From: Escherichia phage MirsaeidiM_Esher2
Length of the DNA: 40,547 bases
Direction: 5' to 3' (one strand)
Sequence record: PQ464628.1
Part shown: positions 1 through 40,547 of the stretch, piece after piece
Layout of the letters: each line of letters begins with the position of its first letter
How positions within the stretch are numbered: the first letter of the stretch is position 1
Notes under the pieces: model-generated
What the model was told of the DNA's origin: nothing
Databases searched by the model: none
What the model saw: the letters and a program-made list of their open reading frames with translations, nothing else
Translations under genes and position numbers: made by a program

Positions 1-86
1 TCATTACTATATGTAGTGGCCTTTATGGTTAACACTAACTAGTGGAGGAGACTCTACGTGAAATCTGATAAACCGGGAGGGCAACT

Positions 87-536
87 ATGCTCGAATTTTT
101 AAAGAGAGCGGCTCCGTGGTTACTTGCAGCAGTGATGTTTGCTGGTGGATACCACACCGCTAACAATAAGTGGGAGGCTAAGGTAAATGAAGAATACACC
201 TCGAATCTTAAGGCATCGGAAGATACAAGGCTCGCTGTCCAAGCTGAAGTCAACAAAGTGTCCAAACGGTTTCAGGACGAAATGTCCTCGCTGGAAGGCA
301 GCACTGATAGGATTATTGCTGACCTTCAGTCTGACAATAAGCGGCTGCGCATCCGAGTCAAACCAACTAGTGGAACCACGCAAAGTGACGGTCGATGCGT
401 CATTGATGGTTACGCCGAACTTGACGAACGAGATGCTAAACGTCTTATCGCCGTCGGAGTGAAAGGAGACAAGTGGATTAAGGCCCTTCAGGACACTGTG
501 AGAGCCTTACAGCAAGAGAAGGAGGTGACGCATTGA
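87..536 (+). CDS. 18.5: Rz-like i-spanin (T7 gp18.5 homolog)
   Basis: 149-aa ORF; SD GGGAGGG upstream; N-terminal TM segment ([14 protein letters not shown]) then charged helical region; sits between small and large terminase as in T7. Confidence 0.8.
187..462 (+). CDS. 18.7: Rz1-like o-spanin lipoprotein embedded in Rz (+1 frame)
   Basis: ORF entirely inside 87..536 in another frame; lipobox-like LTISG-C followed by Pro-containing C-terminus; true start codon uncertain. Confidence 0.6.
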   Translation: MKNTPRILRHRKIQGSLSKLKSTKCPNGFRTKCPRWKAALIGLLLTFSLTISGCASESNQLVEPRKVTVDASLMVTPNLTNEMLNVLSPSE

Positions 537-2296
537 GTAAAGACTTAGTGGCGCGTCAGGCGCTAATGACTGCCCGTATGAAGGCAGACTTCGTGTTCTT
601 CCTGTTCGTCCTGTGGAAAGCTCTGTCACTCCCGGTCCCGACTCGCTGTCAGATTGACATGGCGAAGAAACTATCGGCTGGTGACAACAGGCGTTTCATC
701 CTACAGGCGTTCCGTGGTATCGGGAAGTCCTTCATTACGTGTGCATTCGTGGTCTGGAAACTATGGAACAACCCAGACTTGAAGTTCATGATTGTGTCGG
801 CCTCAAAGGAACGAGCCGATGCGAACTCCATCTTCATCAAGCGAATCATCGACCTCATGCCTCAGCTTCGGGAACTCAAACCTAAGCAGGGGCAGCGAGA
901 TGCGGTTATCAGCTTCGACGTTGGACCAGCCAAGCCAGACCACTCACCTTCGGTTAAGTCCGTTGGTATCACTGGTCAGTTGACTGGTAGTCGTGCTGAC
1001 ATCCTGATTGCCGATGACGTGGAGGTTCCGAACAACTCAGCGACTCAGGCTGCCCGAGACCGTCTGTCAGAGCTTGTGAAAGAGTTCGACGCTATCCTGA
1101 AGCCGGGAGGTACAATCATCTATCTGGGTACTCCTCAGAACGAGATGACCTTGTATCGTGAGCTGGAAGGCCGTGGGTACACCACTACTATCTGGCCTGC
1201 TCGTTATCCACGCGACAGGAAGGACTGGCAGTCTTACGGCGACCGTCTGGCTCCTATACTTCAGGCAGAGCTTGAAGAGGACCCTGAGTCCTTCTACTGG
1301 CGTCCGACCGACGAGGTACGCTTCGATGATACGGACCTGAAGGAACGTGAGTTGTCATATGGCAAGGCTGGCTTCGCTCTACAGTTCATGCTTAACCCGA
1401 ACCTGAGTGATGCTGAGAAGTACCCTCTGAAGCTACGTGACCTTATCGTAGCCGACTTGGACCCAGCGTCTAGCCCAATGGTATACCAATGGCTTCCTAA
1501 CCCTCAGAACAAGCGTGAGGACGTTCCTAACGTTGGACTCATGGGTGACTCATACCACACGTATCAGACTGTAGGTTCTGCCTTCAGTTCGTACACCCAG
1601 AAGATTCTGGTCATTGACCCTAGTGGTCGTGGTAAAGATGAAACTGGTTATGCGGTACTGTACCAGCTCAACGGCTACATCTTCGCTATGGAAGTTGGCG
1701 GTATGCGAGGTGGCTATGAAGACTCTACGCTGGAAGCCTTGGCTAAGATTGGTCGTAAGTGGAAGGTCAACGAATACGTCATTGAGGGTAACTTCGGTGA
1801 TGGTATGTACCTTGAGCTATTCAAGCCTGTAGCGGCCCGTATTCATCCTGCTGCTGTAACTGAAGTGAAGAGTAAGGGTCAGAAGGAACTCCGCATCTGT
1901 GACGTTCTGGAGCCTATCATGGGGTCTCACCGACTTATCGTTAACGCTGCTGCTATCGTCCAAGACTACCAGTCAGCCTCTGATAAGGATGGTGTGCGTA
2001 ACCCTATCTACTCTCTCTTCTACCAGATGACCCGTATCTCTCGTGAACGTGGAGCATTGGCACACGATGACCGACTTGATGCGCTGGCTATCGGTGTACA
2101 GTTCTTCGTTGAGTCTATGGCGAAGGATGCCAACAAAGGCGAACGTGAAGTCACTGAGGAGTGGCTGGAAGAACAGATGGAGAACCCACGGAAAGGCTTC
2201 GAGTCCATCCACACGGAGTTCTGGGACAATGGGGTCCGGGTAACTCACGATACGGACGACGAGCTGGGACTAGGGTCCTACGTTACGTTCCACTAG
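533..2296 (+). CDS. 19: terminase large subunit (T7 gp19 homolog)
   Basis: 587 aa; colinear with T7 gp19 as recalled ([32 protein letters not shown]); TTG start at 533 overlapping the Rz stop (TTGA), SD GGAGG 7 nt upstream. Confidence 0.95.
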
Positions 2297-2390: not shown

Positions 2391-2413
2391 ACTTAACTAT
2401 CACTATAGGGAAG
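2391..2413 (+). promoter_or_regulatory. phage-RNAP promoter, phiOR-like (ACTTAACTATCACTATAGGGAAG)
   Basis: Matches the recurring 23-bp motif found 11 times in the window; lies after gene 19 and before the gene 19.5-like ORF, as phiOR does in T7. Confidence 0.7.
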
Positions 2414-2592: not shown

Positions 2593-2751
2593 ATGGCAAA
2601 GACCAAAGCTGTACTTAAAGCTCTGGCGACCAATCGAGCTACATACAGGTTTCTTGCTGCTGTTCTACTTACTGCTGGCGTTACTACTGGAAGTCAGTGG
2701 GTCGGGTGGGTCGAGACTCTCGTATGTTCTCTGGTGTCTGAGTGTCATTAA
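2593..2751 (+). CDS. 19.5: small protein, T7 gp19.5-like (52 aa)
   Basis: ATG with SD AGGAGG 10 nt upstream; hydrophobic 52-aa product with RxTYRFL motif resembling recalled T7 gp19.5; below the 60-aa cutoff of the ORF track. Confidence 0.5.
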   Translation: MAKTKAVLKALATNRATYRFLAAVLLTAGVTTGSQWVGWVETLVCSLVSECH

Positions 2752-2860
2752 CGCCGTAATGGTAACAATCAACGAAAGGAGGTAGGGATGGACGAGGAGT
2801 CTTATGGGTCGTTCTCTGACGAAGATTATCAGACGGAGTGGGAATACTCGCATTGAAGAC

Positions 2861-2901
2861 CTAAGGTCAGTTCATAGCTGACGCTACTCTACTGACCTTA
2901 G
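2861..2901. repeat. perfect 10-bp inverted repeat (CTAAGGTCAG / CTGACCTTAG) with 21-nt loop
   Basis: Arms at 2861..2870 and 2892..2901 are exact reverse complements; located in the right-end non-coding region. Confidence 0.6.
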
Positions 2902-2988
2902 CTACTGTAGTCAAGGACTTTAGGTAACACCTTAAGAGAAGCTCACTTAGGGTCATCCTACTTATTGGTCCATCCTAGTGTCGCCTGA

Positions 2989-3025
2989 CCTACGGTCCTT
3001 GACCTACAGTGGCTGTGGCCTACAG
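2989..3025. repeat. short repeats CCTAC(A/G)G x3, right-end side
   Basis: CCTACGG at 2989, CCTACAG at 3003 and 3019; same motif as the array at 3266..3367; analogous to the CCTAAAG-type repeats near T7 ends. Confidence 0.5.
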
Positions 3026-3064
3026 TAGTGACGATGAGTTTTGGACCAAAAGTTTGAGACCACA

Positions 3065-3265
3065 TCTCACAGTTCAAGAACCTCAAGTCTCCCCATAGGC
3101 CCTCTTTCAGTCCAGACCAAAGGCCCTACCCAAGTCTATCATAAGGTTAGACCGATGGTCAAGACTTCAGGTCAACGATAGGTCTAGGCTATGGCTTAGG
3201 GAAGGACGATAGGTGGTGACTATTGGTCTGTCTTTGAGTCTCTATCTGTATCAGACCTTGAGTCA
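3065..3265. repeat. candidate terminal-repeat region (collapsed single copy) with genome end near 3065
   Basis: Starts TCTCACAGT, as the T7 left end does (TCTCACAGTGTACGG, recalled); flanked on both sides by CCTACAGT repeat arrays; boundaries approximate. Confidence 0.3.
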
Positions 3266-3322
3266 CTACCTACAGTCTAACTACCTACAGTCTAACTACC
3301 TACAGTCTAACTACCTACAGTC
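3266..3322. repeat. tandem 15-bp repeat CTACCTACAGTCTAA (3 full copies + 12-nt partial)
   Basis: Read directly; two further CCTACAGT copies at 3344..3367; produces the artefactual SNYLQ-repeat ORF 3213..3410. Confidence 0.9.
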
Positions 3323-3478
3323 ATCGACCATCGGTAATGCTGCTACCTACAGTCTAAACCTACAGTTAATAGACACAATGGCTATAGACTTAAGGTCTAA
3401 GACATGTTAGTCAAAGACTATATCCTCTTACACCATGGGGCCGACGATAGCTTAATCAATATTATTTCAAATTACCTA

Positions 3479-3507
3479 TTGACTATAGGTCCAGACTATG
3501 GCCTAAT
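3479..3507 (+). promoter_or_regulatory. candidate sigma70 early promoter (A1-like)
   Basis: TTGACT at 3479..3484, 17-nt spacer, weak -10 CCTAAT at 3502..3507; resembles T7 A1 context (TTGACT...CCTATAGG) as recalled. Confidence 0.35.
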
Positions 3508-3789
3508 AGCTTCCGTCAACACGACACGGCAACAACCGGATAGTGAAGACGCCGGTGTCATCCCGGTTAAGTAGACAGCCTGATAAGTCATACGAACAAC
3601 AGGCAGATGACAATAAGGTAGTAAGGTCGCTGAGGGCTTCCACTTCAGCAGGTCGGAAAGGTCCTAAAACCTAACGAGAGTCTGACCAGCTCGCCAAGTC
3701 TGCCACTGAGGTGGATAACCAGAGGAGGCAACGTGTCGCCCACTGAGGGGCTACAGCTCACAGTTTAGGTTAACAGGCTAAACAAATGC

Positions 3790-3819
3790 TTGACAAGATG
3801 TAACGATAAGATGTAATAT
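3790..3819 (+). promoter_or_regulatory. sigma70 early promoter (A3-like): TTGACA-18-TAATAT
   Basis: -35 TTGACA 3790..3795, -10 TAATAT 3814..3819 preceded by TG; surrounding sequence resembles T7 A3 (TTGACAACATGAAGTAA...TACCACATG). Confidence 0.6.
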
Positions 3820-3942
3820 TTACCACATCGAAACAACGGTGATGACCAACACTGAAATGGTCTACCTGAAGTCCTCTGACTGAAGGGAATGCTCTTTAAC
3901 AATCTGGATAAACTCTTAATGTGCGCCGATAGCGACTAACTA

Positions 3943-3990
3943 CAGGGCCTTTGAGTCTACATCTGAAGGCCCTGACTGATAGCCACTAAC
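3943..3990 (+). promoter_or_regulatory. 9-bp-stem hairpin plus conserved box CCTGACTGATAGCCACTAAC (RNase III R0.3-like site candidate)
   Basis: Stem 3943..3951 / 3966..3974 is perfectly complementary; no T-tract follows; immediately upstream of the first early ORF. Confidence 0.5.
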
Positions 3991-3997
3991 TTAAAGG

Positions 3998-4252
3998 ATG
4001 GACACTATGAAACACTTAAGCACAATCACTAATCGCAATGAAGTATTCGTGAACACTAAAGGTTATGCGTGGATTCAGCTTAAAGAGATGAGAGGAGCGC
4101 GTCACCGTGTGGTAGTGCGCAAGGTATCAAGCAAGCAGTTCAGCAACTACAGCGTCGATACTGTGCGTATAGACAACGAGACATACCTGATAGACGCGCA
4201 GATAACCGTGAGTCCTACAGTGGGCGTCTCAGCTCCTTATTTCGCTAACTGA
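3998..4252 (+). CDS. hypothetical early protein (84 aa; basic)
   Basis: First ORF downstream of the sigma70 promoters; SD AAGGA favours the second ATG at 4007; no similarity to T7 proteins I can recall. Confidence 0.55.
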   Translation: MDTMKHLSTITNRNEVFVNTKGYAWIQLKEMRGARHRVVVRKVSSKQFSNYSVDTVRIDNETYLIDAQITVSPTVGVSAPYFAN

Positions 4253-4335: not shown

Positions 4336-4839
4336 ATGGAACGTAATGCTAACGCATACTATGAGCTGCTGGCTGCAACCGTTGAGGCATTTATCGAGCG
4401 TATTCAGTACGACCATCTGACTCAAGATGATGACTACAGCGATGCGCTGCATGAGGTCGTAGACGGTCAGGTTCCACACTATTACCACGAGATTTTTACG
4501 GTGATGGCTGCTGATGGTATAGACCACGAGTTCGAAGACTCTGGGCTGATGCCTGAAACCAAGGACGTAACGCGTATACTACAAGCTCGCATCTATGAGG
4601 CGCTTTATAACGATGTGTCTAATAGCTTGGATGTAGTCTGGTTTGAGGCTGAAGAGGCAGACGAAGAGGATGAATATTGGGTAGTTGACGCTAAAACAGG
4701 CGCAATAATTGTGCAAGCTGTAGCTCTTGAGGTCGCTACTGCATGTGCCAAGGTCAACTATGCAATAGGTCGCCACCTGAAGGTGGAAGACATCAATGAT
4801 AACGTAGTGTTCGACCCTGCGGCTGAGGACTGCGAGTGA
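4336..4839 (+). CDS. 0.3: Ocr-like DNA-mimic anti-restriction protein with C-terminal extension
   Basis: 167 aa; residues ~40-95 ([43 protein letters not shown]) match recalled T7 Ocr; acidic; about 50 aa longer than the 117-aa T7 Ocr. Confidence 0.8.
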
Positions 4840-8681: not shown

Positions 8682-8704
8682 CCTAAACTATCACTATAGG
8701 ATTA
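8682..8704 (+). promoter_or_regulatory. phage-RNAP promoter (CCTAAACTATCACTATAGGATTA)
   Basis: Consensus 23-mer; upstream of the gene 1.1-like ORF. Confidence 0.8.
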
Positions 8705-8747
8705 GACTCAAGGTCATGACTCAAAGTCGTGGCCTTCATGATTAACC
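8705..8747 (+). promoter_or_regulatory. RNase III-type hairpin candidate (R1.1-like)
   Basis: Upper stem AGGTCA 8711..8716 / TGGCCT 8730..8735 with 13-nt loop; motif TAGACTCAAGGTCAT...GTGGCCTTYATGRTTA shared with 16049.. and 40481.. Confidence 0.45.
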
Positions 8748-8777
8748 CTAAATAAACACTACTGGAGATTTAACCTT

Positions 8778-12599: not shown

Positions 12600-12820
12600 C
12601 TCAAGAAGTTAAGGTCGTTCGTAAGCGTCTGACCATTGATAAAATCCCGGTAGGCTATGCGTTTATCGTCCACGGTAAGCCTGGTGAAGTGTACGTGAAG
12701 ATTAGTAACTCTCACGTCTTCAACCATAAGTTGCTCCAGATGCACACCACGGATGCTAACCGCTTCCAACGTCATCTGAACCTCGTAGCTGTAGAGCTGG
12801 TGGTGTATGATGGTGAGTAA
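12596..12820 (+). CDS. hypothetical protein (74 aa)
   Basis: ATG overlaps gp3 stop (ATGA); lies between genes 3 and 3.5. Confidence 0.55.
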   Translation: MTQEVKVVRKRLTIDKIPVGYAFIVHGKPGEVYVKISNSHVFNHKLLQMHTTDANRFQRHLNLVAVELVVYDGE

Positions 12821-13274
12821 GGTTCAGTTCAACCCACGGTCCCGGACTGACGCTATCTTCGTTCACTGTTCGGCTACCAAGCCAGAGATGGACATCGGGG
12901 TAGAGACCATCCGTATGTGGCACAAGCAGCAAGGCTGGCTGGACGTAGGCTACCACTTTATCATCAAGCGCGATGGTACTGTGGAAGAGGGTCGCCCGGT
13001 CAATGTCGTAGGGTCACACGTTAAGGACTGGAACTCACGGTCTGTAGGCGTCTGCCTTGTAGGGGGAATTGACGCTAAGGGTCAGTTTGAAGCTAACTTC
13101 ACTCCAGCCCAGATGAACTCCCTGCGCAACAAGCTGGAGGAGCTTATGAGTAAGTACCCTAATGCAGAGCTAATGGCCCATCATTCAGTGGCAGCCAAAG
13201 CCTGTCCGAGTTTCGACGTGAAGCGATGGTGGACCAAGAATGAACTGGTTACATCTGACCGCGAATCAGTTTAG
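12807..13274 (+). CDS. 3.5: N-acetylmuramoyl-L-alanine amidase / lysozyme (T7 gp3.5 homolog)
   Basis: DAIFVHCSATKP, QGWLDVGYHFIIKRDGTVEEGR, AHHSVAAKACPSFDVKRWW match recalled T7 lysozyme. Confidence 0.95.
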   Translation: MMVSKVQFNPRSRTDAIFVHCSATKPEMDIGVETIRMWHKQQGWLDVGYHFIIKRDGTVEEGRPVNVVGSHVKDWNSRSVGVCLVGGIDAKGQFEANFTPAQMNSLRNKLEELMSKYPNAELMAHHSVAAKACPSFDVKRWWTKNELVTSDRESV

Positions 13275-13683
13275 TATCGACCCATCTAGTCCCTCAGGTC
13301 TATCCAGAAATGGTAAGCCTACTGGATGGGACGCTGGTAGATATTGGAGGACTAAGGTTAAAGGGAAGCCAGTAATGTGCCACGTCATAATCATGATGCT
13401 CAAAACTGGAGGTCCTCTACCAGATGGAATGGAAGTTGACCATATTGACCGTGACGGCCATAACAACAGGATTGACAACCTCAGGATTGTGACTAGGCAA
13501 GTCAACGTATGCAACACCAGCGTTAGGAAGGACTCAAAGTCTGGCATCAAGGGTGTAGCATACAGAGCTGGCAGAACTAAGCCTTATGTAGCACACAAGC
13601 AGCGCTTTGGAGAGAGGACGTCGAAGTCTTTCAAAACATCTAATGAAGCCATCGAATGGCTAGGAGAACAACCCAATGATTAA
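13240..13683 (+). CDS. 3.8: HNH endonuclease with AP2-like domain (T7 gp3.8 position)
   Basis: HNH motif EVDHIDRDGHNNRIDNLRIVTRQVN; downstream GIKGVAYRAGRTKPYVAHK (AP2-like); start overlaps the 3' end of the amidase gene by 35 nt. Confidence 0.8.
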   Translation: MNWLHLTANQFSIDPSSPSGLSRNGKPTGWDAGRYWRTKVKGKPVMCHVIIMMLKTGGPLPDGMEVDHIDRDGHNNRIDNLRIVTRQVNVCNTSVRKDSKSGIKGVAYRAGRTKPYVAHKQRFGERTSKSFKTSNEAIEWLGEQPND

Positions 13684-14146: not shown

Positions 14147-15850
<1,704 letters not shown>

Positions 15851-15865
15851 TTACGAGAAGTATAA

Positions 15866-16048
15866 ATGGAGGGTTACATTCTAATGTTACGAAAACTTAA
15901 AGCTCGCTACCATCGGTTCATGTACAAATGGTGGAGTGACGAAGCAACCTGCCTGTCCAACATTCTGGGAGACCAAAGGTTCGACTCCGAGGCGTGGAAG
16001 AGAGCTAACCGGAAGTTTATGTATCACTTCTTGCGTACAGACTTCTAG
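15866..16048 (+). CDS. hypothetical protein (60 aa; may start at 15884)
   Basis: Second ATG at 15884 has GGAGGG 9 nt upstream; position corresponds to T7 genes 4.3/4.5. Confidence 0.45.
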
Positions 16049-16096
16049 GTCTAGACTCAAGGTCATTCATAGCGAGTGGCCTTTATGATTAGACTA
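16049..16096 (+). promoter_or_regulatory. RNase III-type hairpin candidate upstream of DNA polymerase gene
   Basis: Upper stem AGGTCA 16060..16065 / TGGCCT 16077..16082, 11-nt loop; shares the motif seen at 8705.. and 40481.. Confidence 0.45.
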
Positions 16097-16112
16097 AAGC
16101 GGAGGATTAACC

Positions 16113-18284
16113 ATGTTTGACATTAAGAGTATCTGGGGTTCTGACATCGAGACCAACGGTCTCCTTGATACAGTCTCCCAGTTTCACTGTGGGGTCCTGA
16201 TTAACGCCGAGTCGAATGAGACCCTTAAGTACGGGGTAGCTCCGATGGTCGGTATCGTCGGTGGCTTCAAAGAGTATGTTCATAAAGTGGAAGAGATTGC
16301 CGCATCACCTGATGGTATGCTGGTATTCCATAACGGTATCAACTATGACGTCCCGGCTATAGACAAGCTGAAGCGTTTGTACTTTGGGAAACGCTTTAAC
16401 TTCCCGAAACATAAGATGATTGATACCTTGGTGCTGGGACGCTTGATGTATCCAAACATTAAGTTCTCAGACATGGGCGCAGTGAAAGCTGGTCGTCTTC
16501 CACCTAAGATGATGGGACGCCAGTCTCTTGAGGCTTGGGGCTATCGTCTCGGTGAGATGAAAGGTGAGTACAAACACGATTACGTTGCCAAGTGCAAGGC
16601 TGAAGGCATCGAATATAAGGCTGGGGACGAATGGTTGTTCCCGTCTCAGGAGATGCTGGACTATAACGTTCAAGACGTTGTGGTCACACTGGCGTTGTTC
16701 AAGAAGTTCCTGACTGACAAGTATTACTTCCAGTCTGAACAGTTCGCTTTCGAACAGATTTATGCGTTGCGTCTGGAACACGATGCTGCGTGGACCTGTG
16801 CGAAGATGGAGCGTAACGGCTATCCGATGAACACCGAGATGGTCGAAGGCTTATATCGTGAACTCACCGTCAAACGTGCGGAGCTGCTGGACAAGCTGCG
16901 TTCGACTTTCGGCAGCTGGTACGCACCAAAGGGAGGAAAGGAGTTCTTCAAGCACCCACGGACAGGCAAGGACCTTCCGAAGTATCCGAGAGTCGTGTAT
17001 CCTAAGGTCGGTGTCATCTTTAAGAAGCCGAAGAACAAAGCTCAACGCTTAGGTCTTGAACCTTGTGAACTCGATACGCGAGACACGATGGAGGGAGCAC
17101 CATTCACGCCAATCACTTACGTTGAGTTTAATCCGGGAAGCGGAGACCACTTAGCGAAAGTATTGATGGAGCGTGGCTGGGAGCCTGTGGACTTCACTGA
17201 CACAGGGAAACCTGTAGTCGATGACGAGACGTTGGAACACGTTAAGTTACCAGACGCAGAGGCTCAGGCTTGCGTAGAGCTGGTCCGTGAGTATCTGGTA
17301 GTCCAGAAGCGAATCGGTCAGGCGGCTGAAGGTAAGAACGCATGGTTGAAACTTGTAGGTCCAGACGGACGTATGCACGGTTCAATCAACCCTTGTGGAG
17401 CAGTAACCGGACGTGCGACCCATAGTTCACCAAACATGGCTCAGGTCCCGGCTAACGGTGCTCCGTATGGTGAGACTTGCCGTGGTGCTTTCGGTGCAGC
17501 GTGGAACAAGAAGGATGGCAAGCCAGACCCTTGGATTCAAGTAGGTGTGGATGCTTCAGGTCTTGAGCTTCGTTGTCTGGGGAACCGAGCGGCTCCGTTT
17601 GATGGTGGCGACTATGCGAAGACTGTGGTCGAAGGTGACATCCACTGGGCCAACGCAGTCAACGCTGGGTTAGCACCTAACGTCCCACGCGACAAGTCCA
17701 GCCACGACCACGATGCTTTCCGTAACAACGCCAAGACGTTCATCTATGCGTTTCTGTATGGTGCAGGTGCCGCTAAGATTGGACTGATTGTAGGCGGTGG
17801 TAAGAAGGAAGGCGCGGCCCTGATGAAGAAATTTATTGAGGGTACACCAGCTATCAAGGACCTGCGAGAGGCTGTCCAGAACACGCTCATCTCCGAGTCC
17901 AAGTGGGTAGATGGTGAGAACATCGTGAAGTGGAAACGCCGCTGGCTTAAAGGTCTGGACGGTCGACGCATTCACATCCGGTCTCCACACTCAGCACTTA
18001 ACGCCTTGCTTCAAGGTGATGGTGCGGTGGTCTGCAAGCACTGGATAGTCGAGACCGAGCGTATGCTCGAAGAGGCCGGGTATGTCCACGGCTGGGAAGG
18101 AGACTTCGCGTACATGGCTTGGGTCCACGATGAGCTACAGATTGCGTGTCGCACTCAGGAGATTGCCGAAGAAGTCGTCAAGATTGCTCAACTTGCTATG
18201 CGTAAGGTGGGCGAGTTCTATAACTTTAAATGTGTGTTAGACACGGAGGGTAAAATTGGACCAACGTGGAAAGAATGCCATTGA
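16113..18284 (+). CDS. 5: DNA polymerase (T7 gp5 homolog, family A)
   Basis: 723 aa; FHNGINYDVPA, AVTGRATHSSPNMAQ, NAKTFIYAFLYGAG, AYMAWVHDELQ, C-terminal GKIGPTWKECH match recalled T7 gp5. Confidence 0.97.
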   Translation: MFDIKSIWGSDIETNGLLDTVSQFHCGVLINAESNETLKYGVAPMVGIVGGFKEYVHKVEEIAASPDGMLVFHNGINYDVPAIDKLKRLYFGKRFNFPKHKMIDTLVLGRLMYPNIKFSDMGAVKAGRLPPKMMGRQSLEAWGYRLGEMKGEYKHDYVAKCKAEGIEYKAGDEWLFPSQEMLDYNVQDVVVTLALFKKFLTDKYYFQSEQFAFEQIYALRLEHDAAWTCAKMERNGYPMNTEMVEGLYRELTVKRAELLDKLRSTFGSWYAPKGGKEFFKHPRTGKDLPKYPRVVYPKVGVIFKKPKNKAQRLGLEPCELDTRDTMEGAPFTPITYVEFNPGSGDHLAKVLMERGWEPVDFTDTGKPVVDDETLEHVKLPDAEAQACVELVREYLVVQKRIGQAAEGKNAWLKLVGPDGRMHGSINPCGAVTGRATHSSPNMAQVPANGAPYGETCRGAFGAAWNKKDGKPDPWIQVGVDASGLELRCLGNRAAPFDGGDYAKTVVEGDIHWANAVNAGLAPNVPRDKSSHDHDAFRNNAKTFIYAFLYGAGAAKIGLIVGGGKKEGAALMKKFIEGTPAIKDLREAVQNTLISESKWVDGENIVKWKRRWLKGLDGRRIHIRSPHSALNALLQGDGAVVCKHWIVETERMLEEAGYVHGWEGDFAYMAWVHDELQIACRTQEIAEEVVKIAQLAMRKVGEFYNFKCVLDTEGKIGPTWKECH

Positions 18285-36717: not shown

Positions 36718-39700
36718 ATGTCCACGATTACACAATTCCCTTCAGGAAACACTCAGTACAGGATTGAGTTCGACTACCTAGCCAGAACGTTTGTTGTTGT
36801 TACGCTGGTGAATAGCTCTAACCCTACCCTGAACCGTGTACTGGAAGTTGGTCGAGATTACCGATTCCTTAATCCAACGATGATTGAGATGTTGGTTGAC
36901 CAATCAGGTTTCGACATCGTTCGTATTCACCGTCAGACTGGAACTGACTTAGTGGTAGACTTCAGGAATGGCTCAGTGTTGACAGCTAGTGACCTGACAA
37001 ATTCAGAGCTTCAGGCTATCCATATTGCAGAAGAAGGTCGAGACCAAACGGTTGACTTAGCGAAGGAATATGCCGATGCTGCTGGTAGCTCTGCTGGCAA
37101 CGCTAAGGATAGCGAGGACGAAGCACGCCGAATCGCTGAGAGTATCAGGGCAGCTGGTCTAATTGGCTATATGACCCGTCGCTCCTTCGAGAAAGGCTAC
37201 AACGTTACAACATGGAGCGAGGTCCTTCTATGGGAAGAGGATGGTGATTATTACCGCTGGGATGGTACGCTTCCAAAGAACGTTCCTGCTGGTTCAACTC
37301 CTGAAACTTCCGGTGGGATTGGATTAGGTGCGTGGGTTAGTGTTGGTGATGCTGCTTTAAGAAGTCAGATTTCAAACCCGGAAGGGGCAATACTCTACCC
37401 TGAATTACATAGAGCACGCTGGCTTGATGAAAAAGATGTTCGTGGTTGGGGTGCTAAAGGGGATGGTGTCACTGATGATACAGCAGCGTTAACGAGCGCA
37501 TTAAACGACACACCGGTTGGACAAAAGATTAATGGCAATGGGGGAACATATAAGGTCACATCCCTGCCTGACATTAGTAGATTCGTCAATACTCGTTTTG
37601 TATATGAACGTATTCCAGGTCAGCCGCTTTATTATGTCTCTGAAGAATTTGTTCAAGGTGAACTGTTTAAAATAACGGACACCCCTTATTACAATGCGTG
37701 GCCACAGGATAAAGCGTTCGTTTACGATGATGTTATTTACTGCCCGTTCATGGCTGGTGATAGACATGGGGTCAGTCGTCTGCATGTATCATGGGTTAAG
37801 TCTGGTGATGACGGTCAAACATGGTCTACTCCAGAGTGGTTAACTGATCTGCATCCAGATTACCCTACAGTGAACTATCATTGTATGAGTATGGGTGTAT
37901 GTCGCAACCGTCTGTTTGCCATGATTGAAACACGTACTTTAGCCAATAACGCATTAACCAATTGTGCATTGTGGGATCGCCCCATGTCTCGTAGCCTGCA
38001 TCTTACTGGTGGTATCACTAAAGCTGCAAATCAGCGATATGCAACAATACATGTACCAGACCACGGACTATTCGTGGGTGATTTTGTTAACTTCTCTAAT
38101 TCTGCGGTAACAGGTGTATCCGGTGATATGAATGTTGCAACCGTAATAGATAAGGACAACTTCACGGTTCTTACACCCAACCAGCAGACTTCAGATTTGA
38201 ATAACGCTGGAAAGAATTGGCACATGGGTACTTCTTTCCATAAGTCTCCATGGCGTAAGACAGACCTTGGGCTAATCCCTCGTGTCACAGAGGTGCATAG
38301 CTTTGCTACTATTGATAACAATGGCTTTGTTATGGGTTATCATCAAGGCGATGTAGCCCCACGCGAAGTTGGGCTTTTCTACTTCCCTGATGCTTTCAAT
38401 AGCCCATCTAGTTATGTTCGTCGTCAGATACCATCTGAGTATGAACCAGATGCGTCAGAGCCATGCATCAAGTACTATGACGGTGTATTATACCTTATCA
38501 CTCGTGGCACTCGTGGGGATAGACTAGGTAGCTCTTTGCATCGTAGTAGAGACATAGGTCAGACTTGGGAGTCACTGAGATTTCCACATAATGTTCATCA
38601 TACTACATTACCTTTTGCTAAAGTAGGGGATGACCTTATTATGTTTGGTTCAGAACGTGCAGAAAATGAATGGGAAGCAGGTGCACCCGATGATCGTTAC
38701 AAGGCATCTTATCCTCGCACCTTCTATGCACGCTTGAATGTAAACAATTGGAATGCAGATGATATTGAATGGGTTAACATCACTGACCAGATTTATCAGG
38801 GCGGAATAGTTAACTCAGGTGTAGGTGTTGGTTCGGTAGTTGTGAAGGATAATTACATCTACTACATGTTTGGTGGAGAGGACCATTTTAACCCATGGAC
38901 ATATGGAGATAACTCAGCGAAGGATCCCTTCAAATCAGATGGTCATCCCTCAGATTTGTATTGCTACAAAATGAAGATTGGCCCAAGCAATCATGTTTCC
39001 CGTGATTTCAGGTATGGTGCTGTACCTAACAGAGCTGTTCCCGTGTTTTTTGATACGAATGGGATTCGCACTGTTCCTGCGCCAATGGAATTTACAGGGG
39101 ATTTGGGTTTAGGGCATGTGACCATTAGAGCCAGCACCAGTAGTAACATTCGCTCTGAAGTTTTAATGGAAGGTGAATATGGGTTTATCGGGAAATCTAT
39201 ACCGACTGATAACCCGGCAGGGCAGCGCACCATATTTTGCGGGGGTGAAGGCACCAGTTCAACGACTGGCGCACAGATTACGCTTTATGGTGCAAATAAC
39301 ACCGACTCAAGGCGAATAGTTTACAATGGTGCTGAGCATCTGTTCCAGAACGCTGACGTTAAGCCTTATCTCGATAACGTGATTGCGCTTGGTGGACCAA
39401 GTAACCGTTTCACAACTGCATATCTCGGAAGCAACCCTATTGTTACTTCTAATGGGGAGAAGAAAACAGAGCCGGTAGTTTTTGATGATGCTTTCCTAGA
39501 TGCCTGGGGTGACGTTCACTACATCATGTATCAATGGTTAGATGCTGTTCAACTGAAAGGCAATGATGCTCGTATTCACTTCGGGGTTATTGCTCAGCAA
39601 ATTCGTGATGTATTCATTGCACACGGTCTGATGGATGAAAACAGTACGAATTGTCGTTATGCCGTTCTGTGCTATGACAAGTATCCACGGTTGACCGATA

Positions 39701-39912
39701 CGGTATTTTCGCACAATGAAATCATTGAACACACTGACGAGGAGGGTAATGTCACTACTACGGAAGAGCCTGTATTCACTGAGGTGGTTATCCATGAAGA
39801 GGGTGAGGAGTGGGGTGTTCGGCCTGACGGAATTTTCTTTGCTGAAGCCGCTTATCAGAGAAGAAAACTGGAAAGAATCGAAGCCAGACTTTCTGCTCTT
39901 GAACAGAAGTAA
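36718..39912 (+). CDS. 17: tailspike: gp17-type N-terminal adaptor + endosialidase catalytic domain + C-terminal intramolecular chaperone domain
   Basis: 1064 aa; N-terminus EFDYLARTFVVVTL like T7 gp17; Asp-boxes SGDDGQTW (37801..37824) and SRDIGQTW (38545..38568); overall matches recalled K1F endosialidase; AT-richer than flanking genes. Confidence 0.93.
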   Translation: MSTITQFPSGNTQYRIEFDYLARTFVVVTLVNSSNPTLNRVLEVGRDYRFLNPTMIEMLVDQSGFDIVRIHRQTGTDLVVDFRNGSVLTASDLTNSELQAIHIAEEGRDQTVDLAKEYADAAGSSAGNAKDSEDEARRIAESIRAAGLIGYMTRRSFEKGYNVTTWSEVLLWEEDGDYYRWDGTLPKNVPAGSTPETSGGIGLGAWVSVGDAALRSQISNPEGAILYPELHRARWLDEKDVRGWGAKGDGVTDDTAALTSALNDTPVGQKINGNGGTYKVTSLPDISRFVNTRFVYERIPGQPLYYVSEEFVQGELFKITDTPYYNAWPQDKAFVYDDVIYCPFMAGDRHGVSRLHVSWVKSGDDGQTWSTPEWLTDLHPDYPTVNYHCMSMGVCRNRLFAMIETRTLANNALTNCALWDRPMSRSLHLTGGITKAANQRYATIHVPDHGLFVGDFVNFSNSAVTGVSGDMNVATVIDKDNFTVLTPNQQTSDLNNAGKNWHMGTSFHKSPWRKTDLGLIPRVTEVHSFATIDNNGFVMGYHQGDVAPREVGLFYFPDAFNSPSSYVRRQIPSEYEPDASEPCIKYYDGVLYLITRGTRGDRLGSSLHRSRDIGQTWESLRFPHNVHHTTLPFAKVGDDLIMFGSERAENEWEAGAPDDRYKASYPRTFYARLNVNNWNADDIEWVNITDQIYQGGIVNSGVGVGSVVVKDNYIYYMFGGEDHFNPWTYGDNSAKDPFKSDGHPSDLYCYKMKIGPSNHVSRDFRYGAVPNRAVPVFFDTNGIRTVPAPMEFTGDLGLGHVTIRASTSSNIRSEVLMEGEYGFIGKSIPTDNPAGQRTIFCGGEGTSSTTGAQITLYGANNTDSRRIVYNGAEHLFQNADVKPYLDNVIALGGPSNRFTTAYLGSNPIVTSNGEKKTEPVVFDDAFLDAWGDVHYIMYQWLDAVQLKGNDARIHFGVIAQQIRDVFIAHGLMDENSTNCRYAVLCYDKYPRLTDTVFSHNEIIEHTDEEGNVTTTEEPVFTEVVIHEEGEEWGVRPDGIFFAEAAYQRRKLERIEARLSALEQK

Positions 39913-40022: not shown

Positions 40023-40217
40023 ATGATTGAGTTAGACTTCAAGAATGAGGTCCTTAAAGCCTCTCCTATCGTCGGGACCGCTGCGGCTGATGGTGCCAGT
40101 CGGTTCTTCTTCGGACTTACACTGAACGAATGGTTCTACGTTGCAGCTATAGCGTACACCGTTGTCCAGATTGGTGTGCTAGTCTACAAAACGATTAAAG
40201 GAGGTGGTAAAACATGA
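40023..40217 (+). CDS. 17.5: class II holin (T7 gp17.5 homolog)
   Basis: 64 aa; APIVGTAAADGASRFFFGLTLNEWFYVAAIAYTVVQIG matches recalled T7 holin; SD GGAGG. Confidence 0.85.
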   Translation: MIELDFKNEVLKASPIVGTAAADGASRFFFGLTLNEWFYVAAIAYTVVQIGVLVYKTIKGGGKT

Positions 40218-40477
40218 CGCAGATGGACTTAGAGAAGTTCCTCTTAATTCTGGATACTGAACGTGCTCGACTCATGCTGCAAGACCTGCGGGATGACACT
40301 AAGCGTTCACCTCAGCTTTACAACGCCATCGAGAAGCTACTGGCTCGTCACAACTTTGTGCTAAGCAAGGTGTCAGTTGACGAGAAGACGCTCGCTGATA
40401 TGGAGGCCCTGAACGCAGAGTATGATAAGGTGCTTTCAGCGACTGAGGATAATGACACAGGGTATGGTGTTCAATAA
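40214..40477 (+). CDS. 18: terminase small subunit / DNA maturation protein (T7 gp18 homolog)
   Basis: 87 aa; RSPQLYNAIEKLLARH matches recalled T7 gp18; ATG overlaps holin stop; SD AGGAGG. Confidence 0.85.
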   Translation: MTQMDLEKFLLILDTERARLMLQDLRDDTKRSPQLYNAIEKLLARHNFVLSKVSVDEKTLADMEALNAEYDKVLSATEDNDTGYGVQ

Positions 40478-40528
40478 GTGTTAGACTCAAGGTCATTACT
40501 ATATGTAGTGGCCTTTATGGTTAACACT
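40477..40528 (+). promoter_or_regulatory. RNase III-type hairpin candidate upstream of Rz (R18.5-like)
   Basis: Lower stem AGTGTTA 40477..40483 / TAACACT 40522..40528; upper stem AGGTCA 40490..40495 / TGGCCT 40509..40514; 13-nt loop. Confidence 0.5.
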
Positions 40529-40547
40529 AACTAGTGGAGGAGACTCT
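40493..40547. repeat. 55-nt duplicate of window positions 1..55 (circular assembly overlap)
   Basis: Exact identity read directly. Confidence 0.95.

Follow-up and report, generated by a model that had tools for sequence, protein, structure and literature searches.

End repeats of contigs peak at lengths of 55, 77 and 99 bp, which match assembler k-mers (CheckV, Nayfach et al. 2020, PMC8116208, Extended Data Fig. 3). According to the authors of CheckV, the assembler opens a cyclic path at some random point, so that the same k-mer stands at either end of the contig (PMC8116208). When T7-like przondoviruses were assembled from short reads, the contigs were linearised mid-genome, with the direct terminal repeat (DTR) in the middle and one copy of it deleted (Elek et al. 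2023, PMC10438801). Phage K1F (NC_007456), Vec13, Peacock, SH3 and EPr2 have linear genomes with direct terminal repeats of ~179-183 bp. For K1F, a repeat of 179 bp is reported, and run-off Sanger sequencing from phage DNA yielded a 183-bp repeat for the K1F-like phage SH3 (PMC4925675).

The window, that is, the whole stretch of 40,547 nucleotides analysed here (Escherichia phage MirsaeidiM_Esher2, PQ464628.1), combines features of these systems. It is very likely a short-read de Bruijn assembly of a K1F-like phage with linear virion DNA, fixed ends and a 179-bp DTR, and the edges of the window are an artefact of the assembly. The collapse of a T7-type genome into a circle is an already known phenomenon, here in a well-populated genus.

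Gene content and relatives

The window is the complete genome of a lytic Kayfunavirus (K1F-like, T7-type; Autographiviridae, Studiervirinae). In megablast, PhiNW-B1, LNA3 and vB_EcoP_F shared ~95% identity over ~96% of an 8-kb segment of the window. Pipis, Zappy, HC13 and vB_EcoP_F shared ~94-95% identity over 90-92% of a 25-kb segment. The + strand carries all substantial ORFs. Of the 26 ORFs tested, 25 gave a PHROG match; they lie on the + strand throughout and follow the order of K1F. The early and replication genes comprise ocr, a single-subunit RNA polymerase (RNAP), ligase, the gp2.5 SSB, endonuclease I, amidase, primase/helicase, DNA polymerase and exonuclease. Virion genes code for portal, scaffold, capsid, tail tube A and B, internal virion proteins and tailspike. 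Lysis and packaging are represented by holin, the small (TerS) and large (TerL) terminase subunits, both spanins and gene 19.5. Once rotated, the window has the gene order of the K1F gene table, and the T7-type set is complete. This collinearity is based on anchor alignments and gene tables. Complete E. coli genomes and PLSDB plasmids gave no match for a prophage or plasmid counterpart.

The genes next to the window edges and to the genome ends are:

40023..40217, + strand: holin (gene 17.5); phrog_920, E 1.4e-26
40214..40477, + strand: terminase small subunit TerS (gene 18); phrog_1351, E 6.7e-34
87..536, + strand: Rz-like i-spanin (gene 18.5); phrog_1327, E 7.6e-61
187..462, + strand: o-spanin ORF embedded within gene 18.5; phrog_4306, E 2.8e-36
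533..2296, + strand: terminase large subunit TerL (gene 19), the concatemer-cutting enzyme; phrog_38, E 1.8e-131
2593..2751, + strand: gene 19.5 homologue, last gene before the right end; phrog_2193, E 7.9e-24
3998..4252, + strand: small early ORF, the first early ORF, preceding the ocr-like gene; phrog_10124
4336..4839, + strand: Ocr-like anti-restriction gene (gene 0.3), a left-end early gene; phrog_2568, E 4.1e-54

TerL is identical in 584 of 587 positions (99%) to the TerL of Peacock, a phage whose DTR was mapped with PhageTerm. The phrog_38 match and the identity with Peacock assign it to the short-DTR type. The gene 19.5 homologue shares 47 of 52 positions with the last CDS of Peacock and is weakly similar to T7 gp19.5 (E 1e-4).

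The tailspike (36718..39912) is 97% identical to the K1F endosialidase (1035 of 1064 positions); a K1-capsulated E. coli is thus very probably the host. An ORF for an HNH endonuclease of 147 aa (13240..13683; phrog_99, E 3e-35) is located between the amidase (12807..13274), the end of which it overlaps, and the primase/helicase (14150..15850). It probably represents a free-standing homing endonuclease. Between amidase and primase/helicase, the annotation of K1F shows no HNH endonuclease gene. The DNA polymerase gene (16113..18284, 723 aa) is uninterrupted; in the K1F reference, the annotation gives gene 5 as a join of two pieces that encloses an HNH endonuclease ORF. The window thus differs from K1F in both the free-standing HNH gene and the uninterrupted polymerase gene.

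The 55-nt end overlap

Positions 1..55 and 40493..40547 of the window are identical over 55 bases with 0 mismatches (TCATTACTATATGTAGTGGCCTTTATGGTTAACACTAACTAGTGGAGGAGACTCT). Prefix and suffix of the 40,547-nt window agree at lengths of 1 and 55 only, and the 55-nt match has no extension on either side. With up to 3 mismatches, the window holds exactly 2 copies of the 55-mer, and 100 shuffles held 0. In self-BLAST, the 55-mer was the sole long exact repeat. The unique unit has 40,547 - 55 = 40,492 bp. The two copies are:

1..55, unstranded (.): end overlap copy 1, assembly k-mer remnant in the intergenic spacer between gene 18 and gene 18.5
40493..40547, unstranded (.): end overlap copy 2, redundant; to be trimmed, leaving 40,492 unique bp

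Terminus-resolved relatives give the natural context of this segment. K1F, Vec13 and Peacock each have a single, internal copy of the 55-mer. It is located in the gene 18 / gene 18.5 spacer, ~3.2 kb inward of the right end. The alignment of all three is collinear and uninterrupted across the join between the end and the start of the window. The contig was thus opened at an arbitrary point, and its duplication is no property of the phage. On this sequence comparison, the 55-mer is a k-mer remnant of the assembler and not a biological terminal repeat. Its length equals a commonly used k, the segment is single-copy in the relatives, and the breakpoint is arbitrary. For short reads, the largest default k of SPAdes and metaSPAdes is 55, and the contig presumably stems from an assembler run with k = 55.

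The preliminary description of the window had reported the same overlap and the unit of 40,492 bp, and both were borne out by the prefix/suffix check and the self-alignment. Its wrapping gene order, with lysis and terminase genes at the start and holin and small terminase at the end, agrees with the PHROG matches and with the K1F order after rotation. It had also held that the window edges are not physical ends, in accordance with the three relatives that read through the join. The k-mer origin of the overlap is not mentioned in it, but is compatible with it.

The overlap does not differ from the k-mer-length 'DTRs' described by CheckV: it is an exact end repeat, has the named peak length of 55 and sits at an arbitrary internal breakpoint. 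The underlying molecule here, however, appears to be linear with a short DTR, not circular.

The contig breakpoint falls within a predicted RNA hairpin. Three paralogous hairpins with the core AAGGTCAT...GTGGCCTT are located at 40478..40526, which overlaps the 55-mer and contains the breakpoint, at 8696..8765 and at 16046..16112. Their folding energies are -19 to -25 kcal/mol (dG), with z about -3.1 to -3.5. The hairpin at 8696 begins inside a phage promoter (8684..8702); the other two occupy spacers directly before genes. In position, the three hairpins resemble the T7 RNase III processing sites R18.5, R1.1/1.3 and R4.7.

The physical ends and the terminal repeat

By homology, the true ends are assigned to a 179-bp direct terminal repeat inside the window. 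Base-level homology to relatives placed them exactly on the left and to -1/+4 nt on the right.

3065..3243, + strand: direct terminal repeat (DTR), 179 bp, one collapsed copy; left end 3065, right end 3243 (-1/+4)
2752..3064, + strand: right-end unique non-coding DNA, ending ...AAAAGTTTGAGACCACA at the left cut site; in K1F, Vec13 and Peacock, the last unique bases align here

Window positions 3040..3270 were searched against the phage collection. The records of Peacock, Vec13 and PR_Kaz2018 start at query base 26, corresponding to window 3065, and those of K1F and KM02 end at query base 203, corresponding to window 3242. Nine terminus-determined records begin at TCTCACAG, window 3065; left ends that coincide with this base include those of K1F, Vec13, Peacock, PR_Kaz2018 and four IMG/VR isolate records. 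Alignment placed the first bases of K1F, Vec13 and Peacock (TCTCACAGTTCAAGAACC...) at the same base. Right ends stop at ...GAGTCTCT, window 3243, with offsets of -1 to +4 across records: K1F, KM02, Vec13 and three further IMG/VR isolate records have their right ends at window 3242-3247. In the alignment, the K1F record ends at 3242 and that of Vec13 at 3243. The Peacock record contains only one repeat copy, and its last base corresponds to 3064. In IMG/VR, a scan with the first 35 bases detected the motif at positions 1-3 of six contigs from isolates and, in the same contigs, a second time ~179-196 nt from the right end. In five Kayfunavirus contigs assembled from metagenomes, the junction occurs once and internally, as in the window. 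An exact-match search of IMG/VR with the window's own DTR variant gave no match.

The DTR is annotated with 179 nt in Peacock (by PhageTerm), Vec13 and EPr2. Public records disagree on the repeat length (178 nt in the K1F record, 179 in Vec13, Peacock and EPr2, 183 in SH3), and the right boundary is therefore known to -1/+4 nt. The length differences among relatives result from indels inside the repeat; the right boundary ...GAGTCTCT is a fixed landmark. In the window, motif search and self-BLAST found both the repeat 3065..3243 and the motif at 3065 in a single copy. Right-end unique DNA up to 3064, one repeat and left-end unique DNA from 3244 onwards form the arrangement of a concatemer junction. 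The surrounding stretch is low in coding sequence, with gene 19.5 ending at 2751 and the first early ORF starting at 3998.

These results support what the preliminary description had proposed for the ends, with some refinements. It had recognised 2752..3997 as the non-coding genome-end region, had located the termini inside the window near 3065, where the left ends of the relatives coincide at exactly 3065, and had described the terminal repeat as a single collapsed copy. For the extent of the repeat, its left boundary of 3065 stands; its right boundary of about 3265 has to be moved to 3243 (-1/+4), and 3265..3322 is a separate tandem array outside the repeat. The genome is complete, as had been stated. 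The attribute 'circularly permuted' applies to the record only: judged by the coinciding ends of its relatives, the phage has fixed, non-permuted ends.

Two relatives have an unusual layout. The record of EPr2 (OM256482) contains the 179-nt DTR four times (1-179, 501-679, 40583-40761 and 41083-41261), with a ~500-bp repeat-containing block duplicated at each end. The record of 216Ecol046PP (PP328844) has nearly the same length and four matching places too. The four-copy layout is either an artefact of record building or a real duplication of the junction region. The repeat at ~476-501 of these two records was considered as a conflicting boundary and was rejected as a record oddity, the EPr2 record carrying the repeat four times. 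Among the relatives listed, most (LNA3, vB_EcoP_F, the MZ2340xx and the OZ0357xx/OZ0358xx series) hold the junction once in mid-record, that is, in arbitrary permutation and with a collapsed DTR. Several OZ records begin ~280-320 bp before the base that corresponds to window position 1. Since most of the listed close relatives are arbitrarily permuted, comparisons of ends within the genus need a re-orientation first.

A linear genome would turn into a circular contig as follows. As the two DTR copies are identical, the assembler would merge them. Reads from the right-end unique DNA into the repeat and reads from the repeat into the left-end unique DNA would then join the genome ends, and the graph would become a cycle. 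Reads from replicative concatemers, with one repeat per junction, would give an identical cycle. The cycle would be printed from an arbitrary node in the gene 18 / gene 18.5 spacer, with one k-mer (k = 55) duplicated at the contig ends. The stretch 3065..3243 would thus be the concatemer-junction form of the true termini. The packaged genome would run from 3065 around the circle to 3243, and the predicted virion genome has 40,492 + 179 = 40,671 bp. In the MirsaeidiM_Esher2 isolate, the repeat is presumably present as a physical duplication, as in its terminus-resolved relatives.

The 55-nt repeat could instead be a real, very short DTR, with the window edges as the true ends of a linear genome. 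End-repeat detectors (CheckV, with a threshold of at least 20 bp) would call the overlap a DTR, and the match is exact. This explanation can hardly be given any credence: three terminus-resolved relatives read through the join and hold the 55-mer in a single, internal copy, and ends at the window edges would place TerS apart from the spanins and TerL. All of the canonical T7-type termini, i.e., terminal sequence, 179-nt repeat and flanking landmarks, are internal at 3065..3243. TerL shares 99% identity with the TerL of a phage whose ends were mapped by PhageTerm to this internal site, and the overlap length of 55 is a standard k-mer. A truly circular genome, or one packaged by the headful mechanism and thus permuted and terminally redundant, would have no fixed ends, and a circular contig would be correct. 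The assembly does close into a circle, and the GenBank records of many close relatives come in arbitrary permutations, but these permutations are explained by the same assembly behaviour (PMC10438801). TerL is of the T7-type family, and one study assigns the TerL proteins of K1F and its close relative, phage F, to the short-DTR clade (PMC5582158). Contrary to headful (pac) packaging, independent records of different laboratories agree exactly in their first and last bases, including run-off Sanger sequencing of SH3 (PMC4925675) and PhageTerm. A circular or headful genome is highly improbable.

A third explanation concerns the origin of the reads and not the map. The circle may owe its closure mainly to reads from replicative concatemers inside cells, for example where a metagenome includes infected cells, and the junction would then be a real molecule. 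T7-type concatemers have one repeat per junction (PMC10438801), the five metagenome-derived Kayfunavirus contigs share the same internal junction, and both routes lead to an identical sequence. Collapse of identical repeats, however, suffices alone and occurs with purified virion DNA (PMC10438801), so that a major contribution of concatemers is considered unlikely. It would leave map, termini and genome length unchanged.

Collapse of the 179-bp DTR of a linear genome, the preferred explanation, has consequences for the record. Automated pipelines would label the contig 'complete, DTR 55 bp' or 'circular'. Such a label misstates the repeat length, the packaging type and the genome length (40,547 or 40,492 instead of the predicted 40,671 bp). 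A correct record would start at 3065, continue round the join minus one 55-mer and finish with a second copy of 3065..3243. The value of the end-overlap finding is practical, not biological; by itself it brings no new biology.

Junction landmarks in comparison with T7, T3 and K1F

The class II pause signal of T7 is the seven-base motif ATCTGTT in the non-template strand. It is preceded by A, C or T, has a phage promoter upstream of it and is located where the junction repeat ends on the right. Any base change in the signal was reported to abolish termination by T7 RNAP, and roles of the junction signal in pausing and packaging were shown for T7 only. The terminal repeat of T7 spans 1..160 and is followed by ATCTGTT at 161..167; the annotated terminal repeat of T3 spans 1..231, with ATCTGTT at 232..238. 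The window has the following landmarks around its junction:

3244..3250, + strand: ATCTGTA, directly adjoining the repeat; by position the counterpart of ATCTGTT, the class II RNAP pause signal at the T7/T3 concatemer junction
2393..2411, + strand: phage-RNAP promoter in phiOR-like position, a perfect match to the window's 9-copy consensus TTAACTATCACTATAGGGA; reads rightward into the junction
3790..3819, + strand: candidate for a strong early promoter of the sigma-70 type, TTGACA-18-TAATAT, 10/12 consensus; in the left-end non-coding region 3244..3997
3003..3366, + strand: CCTACAGT repeats bracketing the DTR; starts at 3003 and 3019 on the left and at 3269, 3284, 3299, 3314, 3346 and 3359 on the right

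In T7, in T3 and in every Kayfunavirus end examined, ATCTGT follows the repeat without a gap, with repeat interiors that are unalignable. The ATCTGTA at 3244 is preceded by T, as is the signal of T7 and T3; the seventh base is A in Kayfunavirus and T in T7 and T3. ATCTGTAT is kept in every Kayfunavirus left end aligned. In the window, ATCTGTW is not enriched (11 found, 11.7 expected), so only the position of the motif is informative. The window is a further example of this positional pattern and not its discovery. By analogy, ATCTGTA may have the role of the T7 signal. That it acts as the K1F-type form of the class II pause signal at the concatemer junction is a tentative assignment, to which we give somewhat less than even chances. 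If ATCTGTA is functional, RNAP pausing may mark the right repeat boundary across Studiervirinae, with a seventh base that co-varies with polymerase specificity.

The promoter at 2393..2411 is placed like phiOR of T7, ~100 bp after gene 19. On the T7 model, the phage RNAP would start at this phiOR-like promoter and transcribe across the junction to ATCTGT at 3244. TerS/TerL would cut between 3064 and 3065, and the repeat would be duplicated during packaging. The arrangement of the junction suggests that this model, i.e., transcription into the junction, cutting at the repeat and repeat duplication, fits the phage. Between the repeat and the first gene, no phage promoter with up to 3 mismatches was found. 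Host promoters A1-A3 of T7 and T3 occupy the same left-end region as the sigma-70-type candidate at 3790..3819.

CCTACAGT occurs 17 times in the window, with 1.6 expected. Eight of these lie around the DTR, all on the + strand, and 0 inside it. To the right of the DTR, a perfect 15-nt tandem array of ACTACCTACAGTCTA (x3.9, TRF score 116) covers 3265..3322 and belongs to this cluster of eight copies; it is present in Vec13 and missing in K1F. The CCTACAGT cluster around the DTR is analogous to the CCTAAAG arrays of T7.

Left of the junction, a hairpin (arms 2910-2925 / 2988-3003) was considered as a parallel to the T7 right-end hairpin. It was rejected with z = -1.8 and 11 of 200 shuffles folding as well. 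Between gene 19.5 and the right end, a 22-codon ATG ORF (MDEESYGSFSDEDYQTEWEYSH) with an upstream AGGAGG is located at 2789..2857, in a stretch conserved in K1F.

In summary of the comparisons, the window resembles the przondovirus assemblies of the HYPPA workflow (Elek et al. 2023) in being opened mid-genome, with a central DTR that has lost one copy and with ends that can be recovered by coverage or from relatives. Those phages belong to the genus Przondovirus and have DTRs of 180-183 bp, and the termini in the window were placed by homology only. With the K1F group, the window shares the gene order, the first bases TCTCACAGTTCAAGAACC..., the last bases ...GAGTCTCT and the sequences that flank the repeat on either side. 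The alignment of the repeat covers its full length and contains few mismatches; TerL is 99% identical (Peacock) and the endosialidase 97% (K1F). In contrast to the K1F group, the window is in another permutation, has one repeat copy instead of two and carries the 55-nt assembler overlap. With a predicted 40,671 bp, the genome is ~1 kb longer than that of K1F (39,704 bp), and the nearest records are only ~94-95% identical to the window over ~90% of its length.

The window also shares features with the T7/T3 junction. The left end starts with TCTCA(C/T)AG, AAAA-T-TGAG...A is located directly before it, and ATCTGT directly follows the repeat. Before the left cut, T7 has ...AAAAATCTGAGTGACTA and the window ...AAAAGTTTGAGACCACA, both continuing with TCTCAC. 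A phage promoter ~100 bp after gene 19 reads into the junction, and short direct repeats flank the terminal repeat. The flanking unit is CCTAAAG in T7 and CCTACAGT in the window. The terminal repeats of T7 and T3 differ in length (160 and 231 bp), their interior is not alignable with the window, and the seventh base of the signal is T versus A in the window. As a further difference, no phiOL-like promoter was found in the window between the repeat and the first gene.
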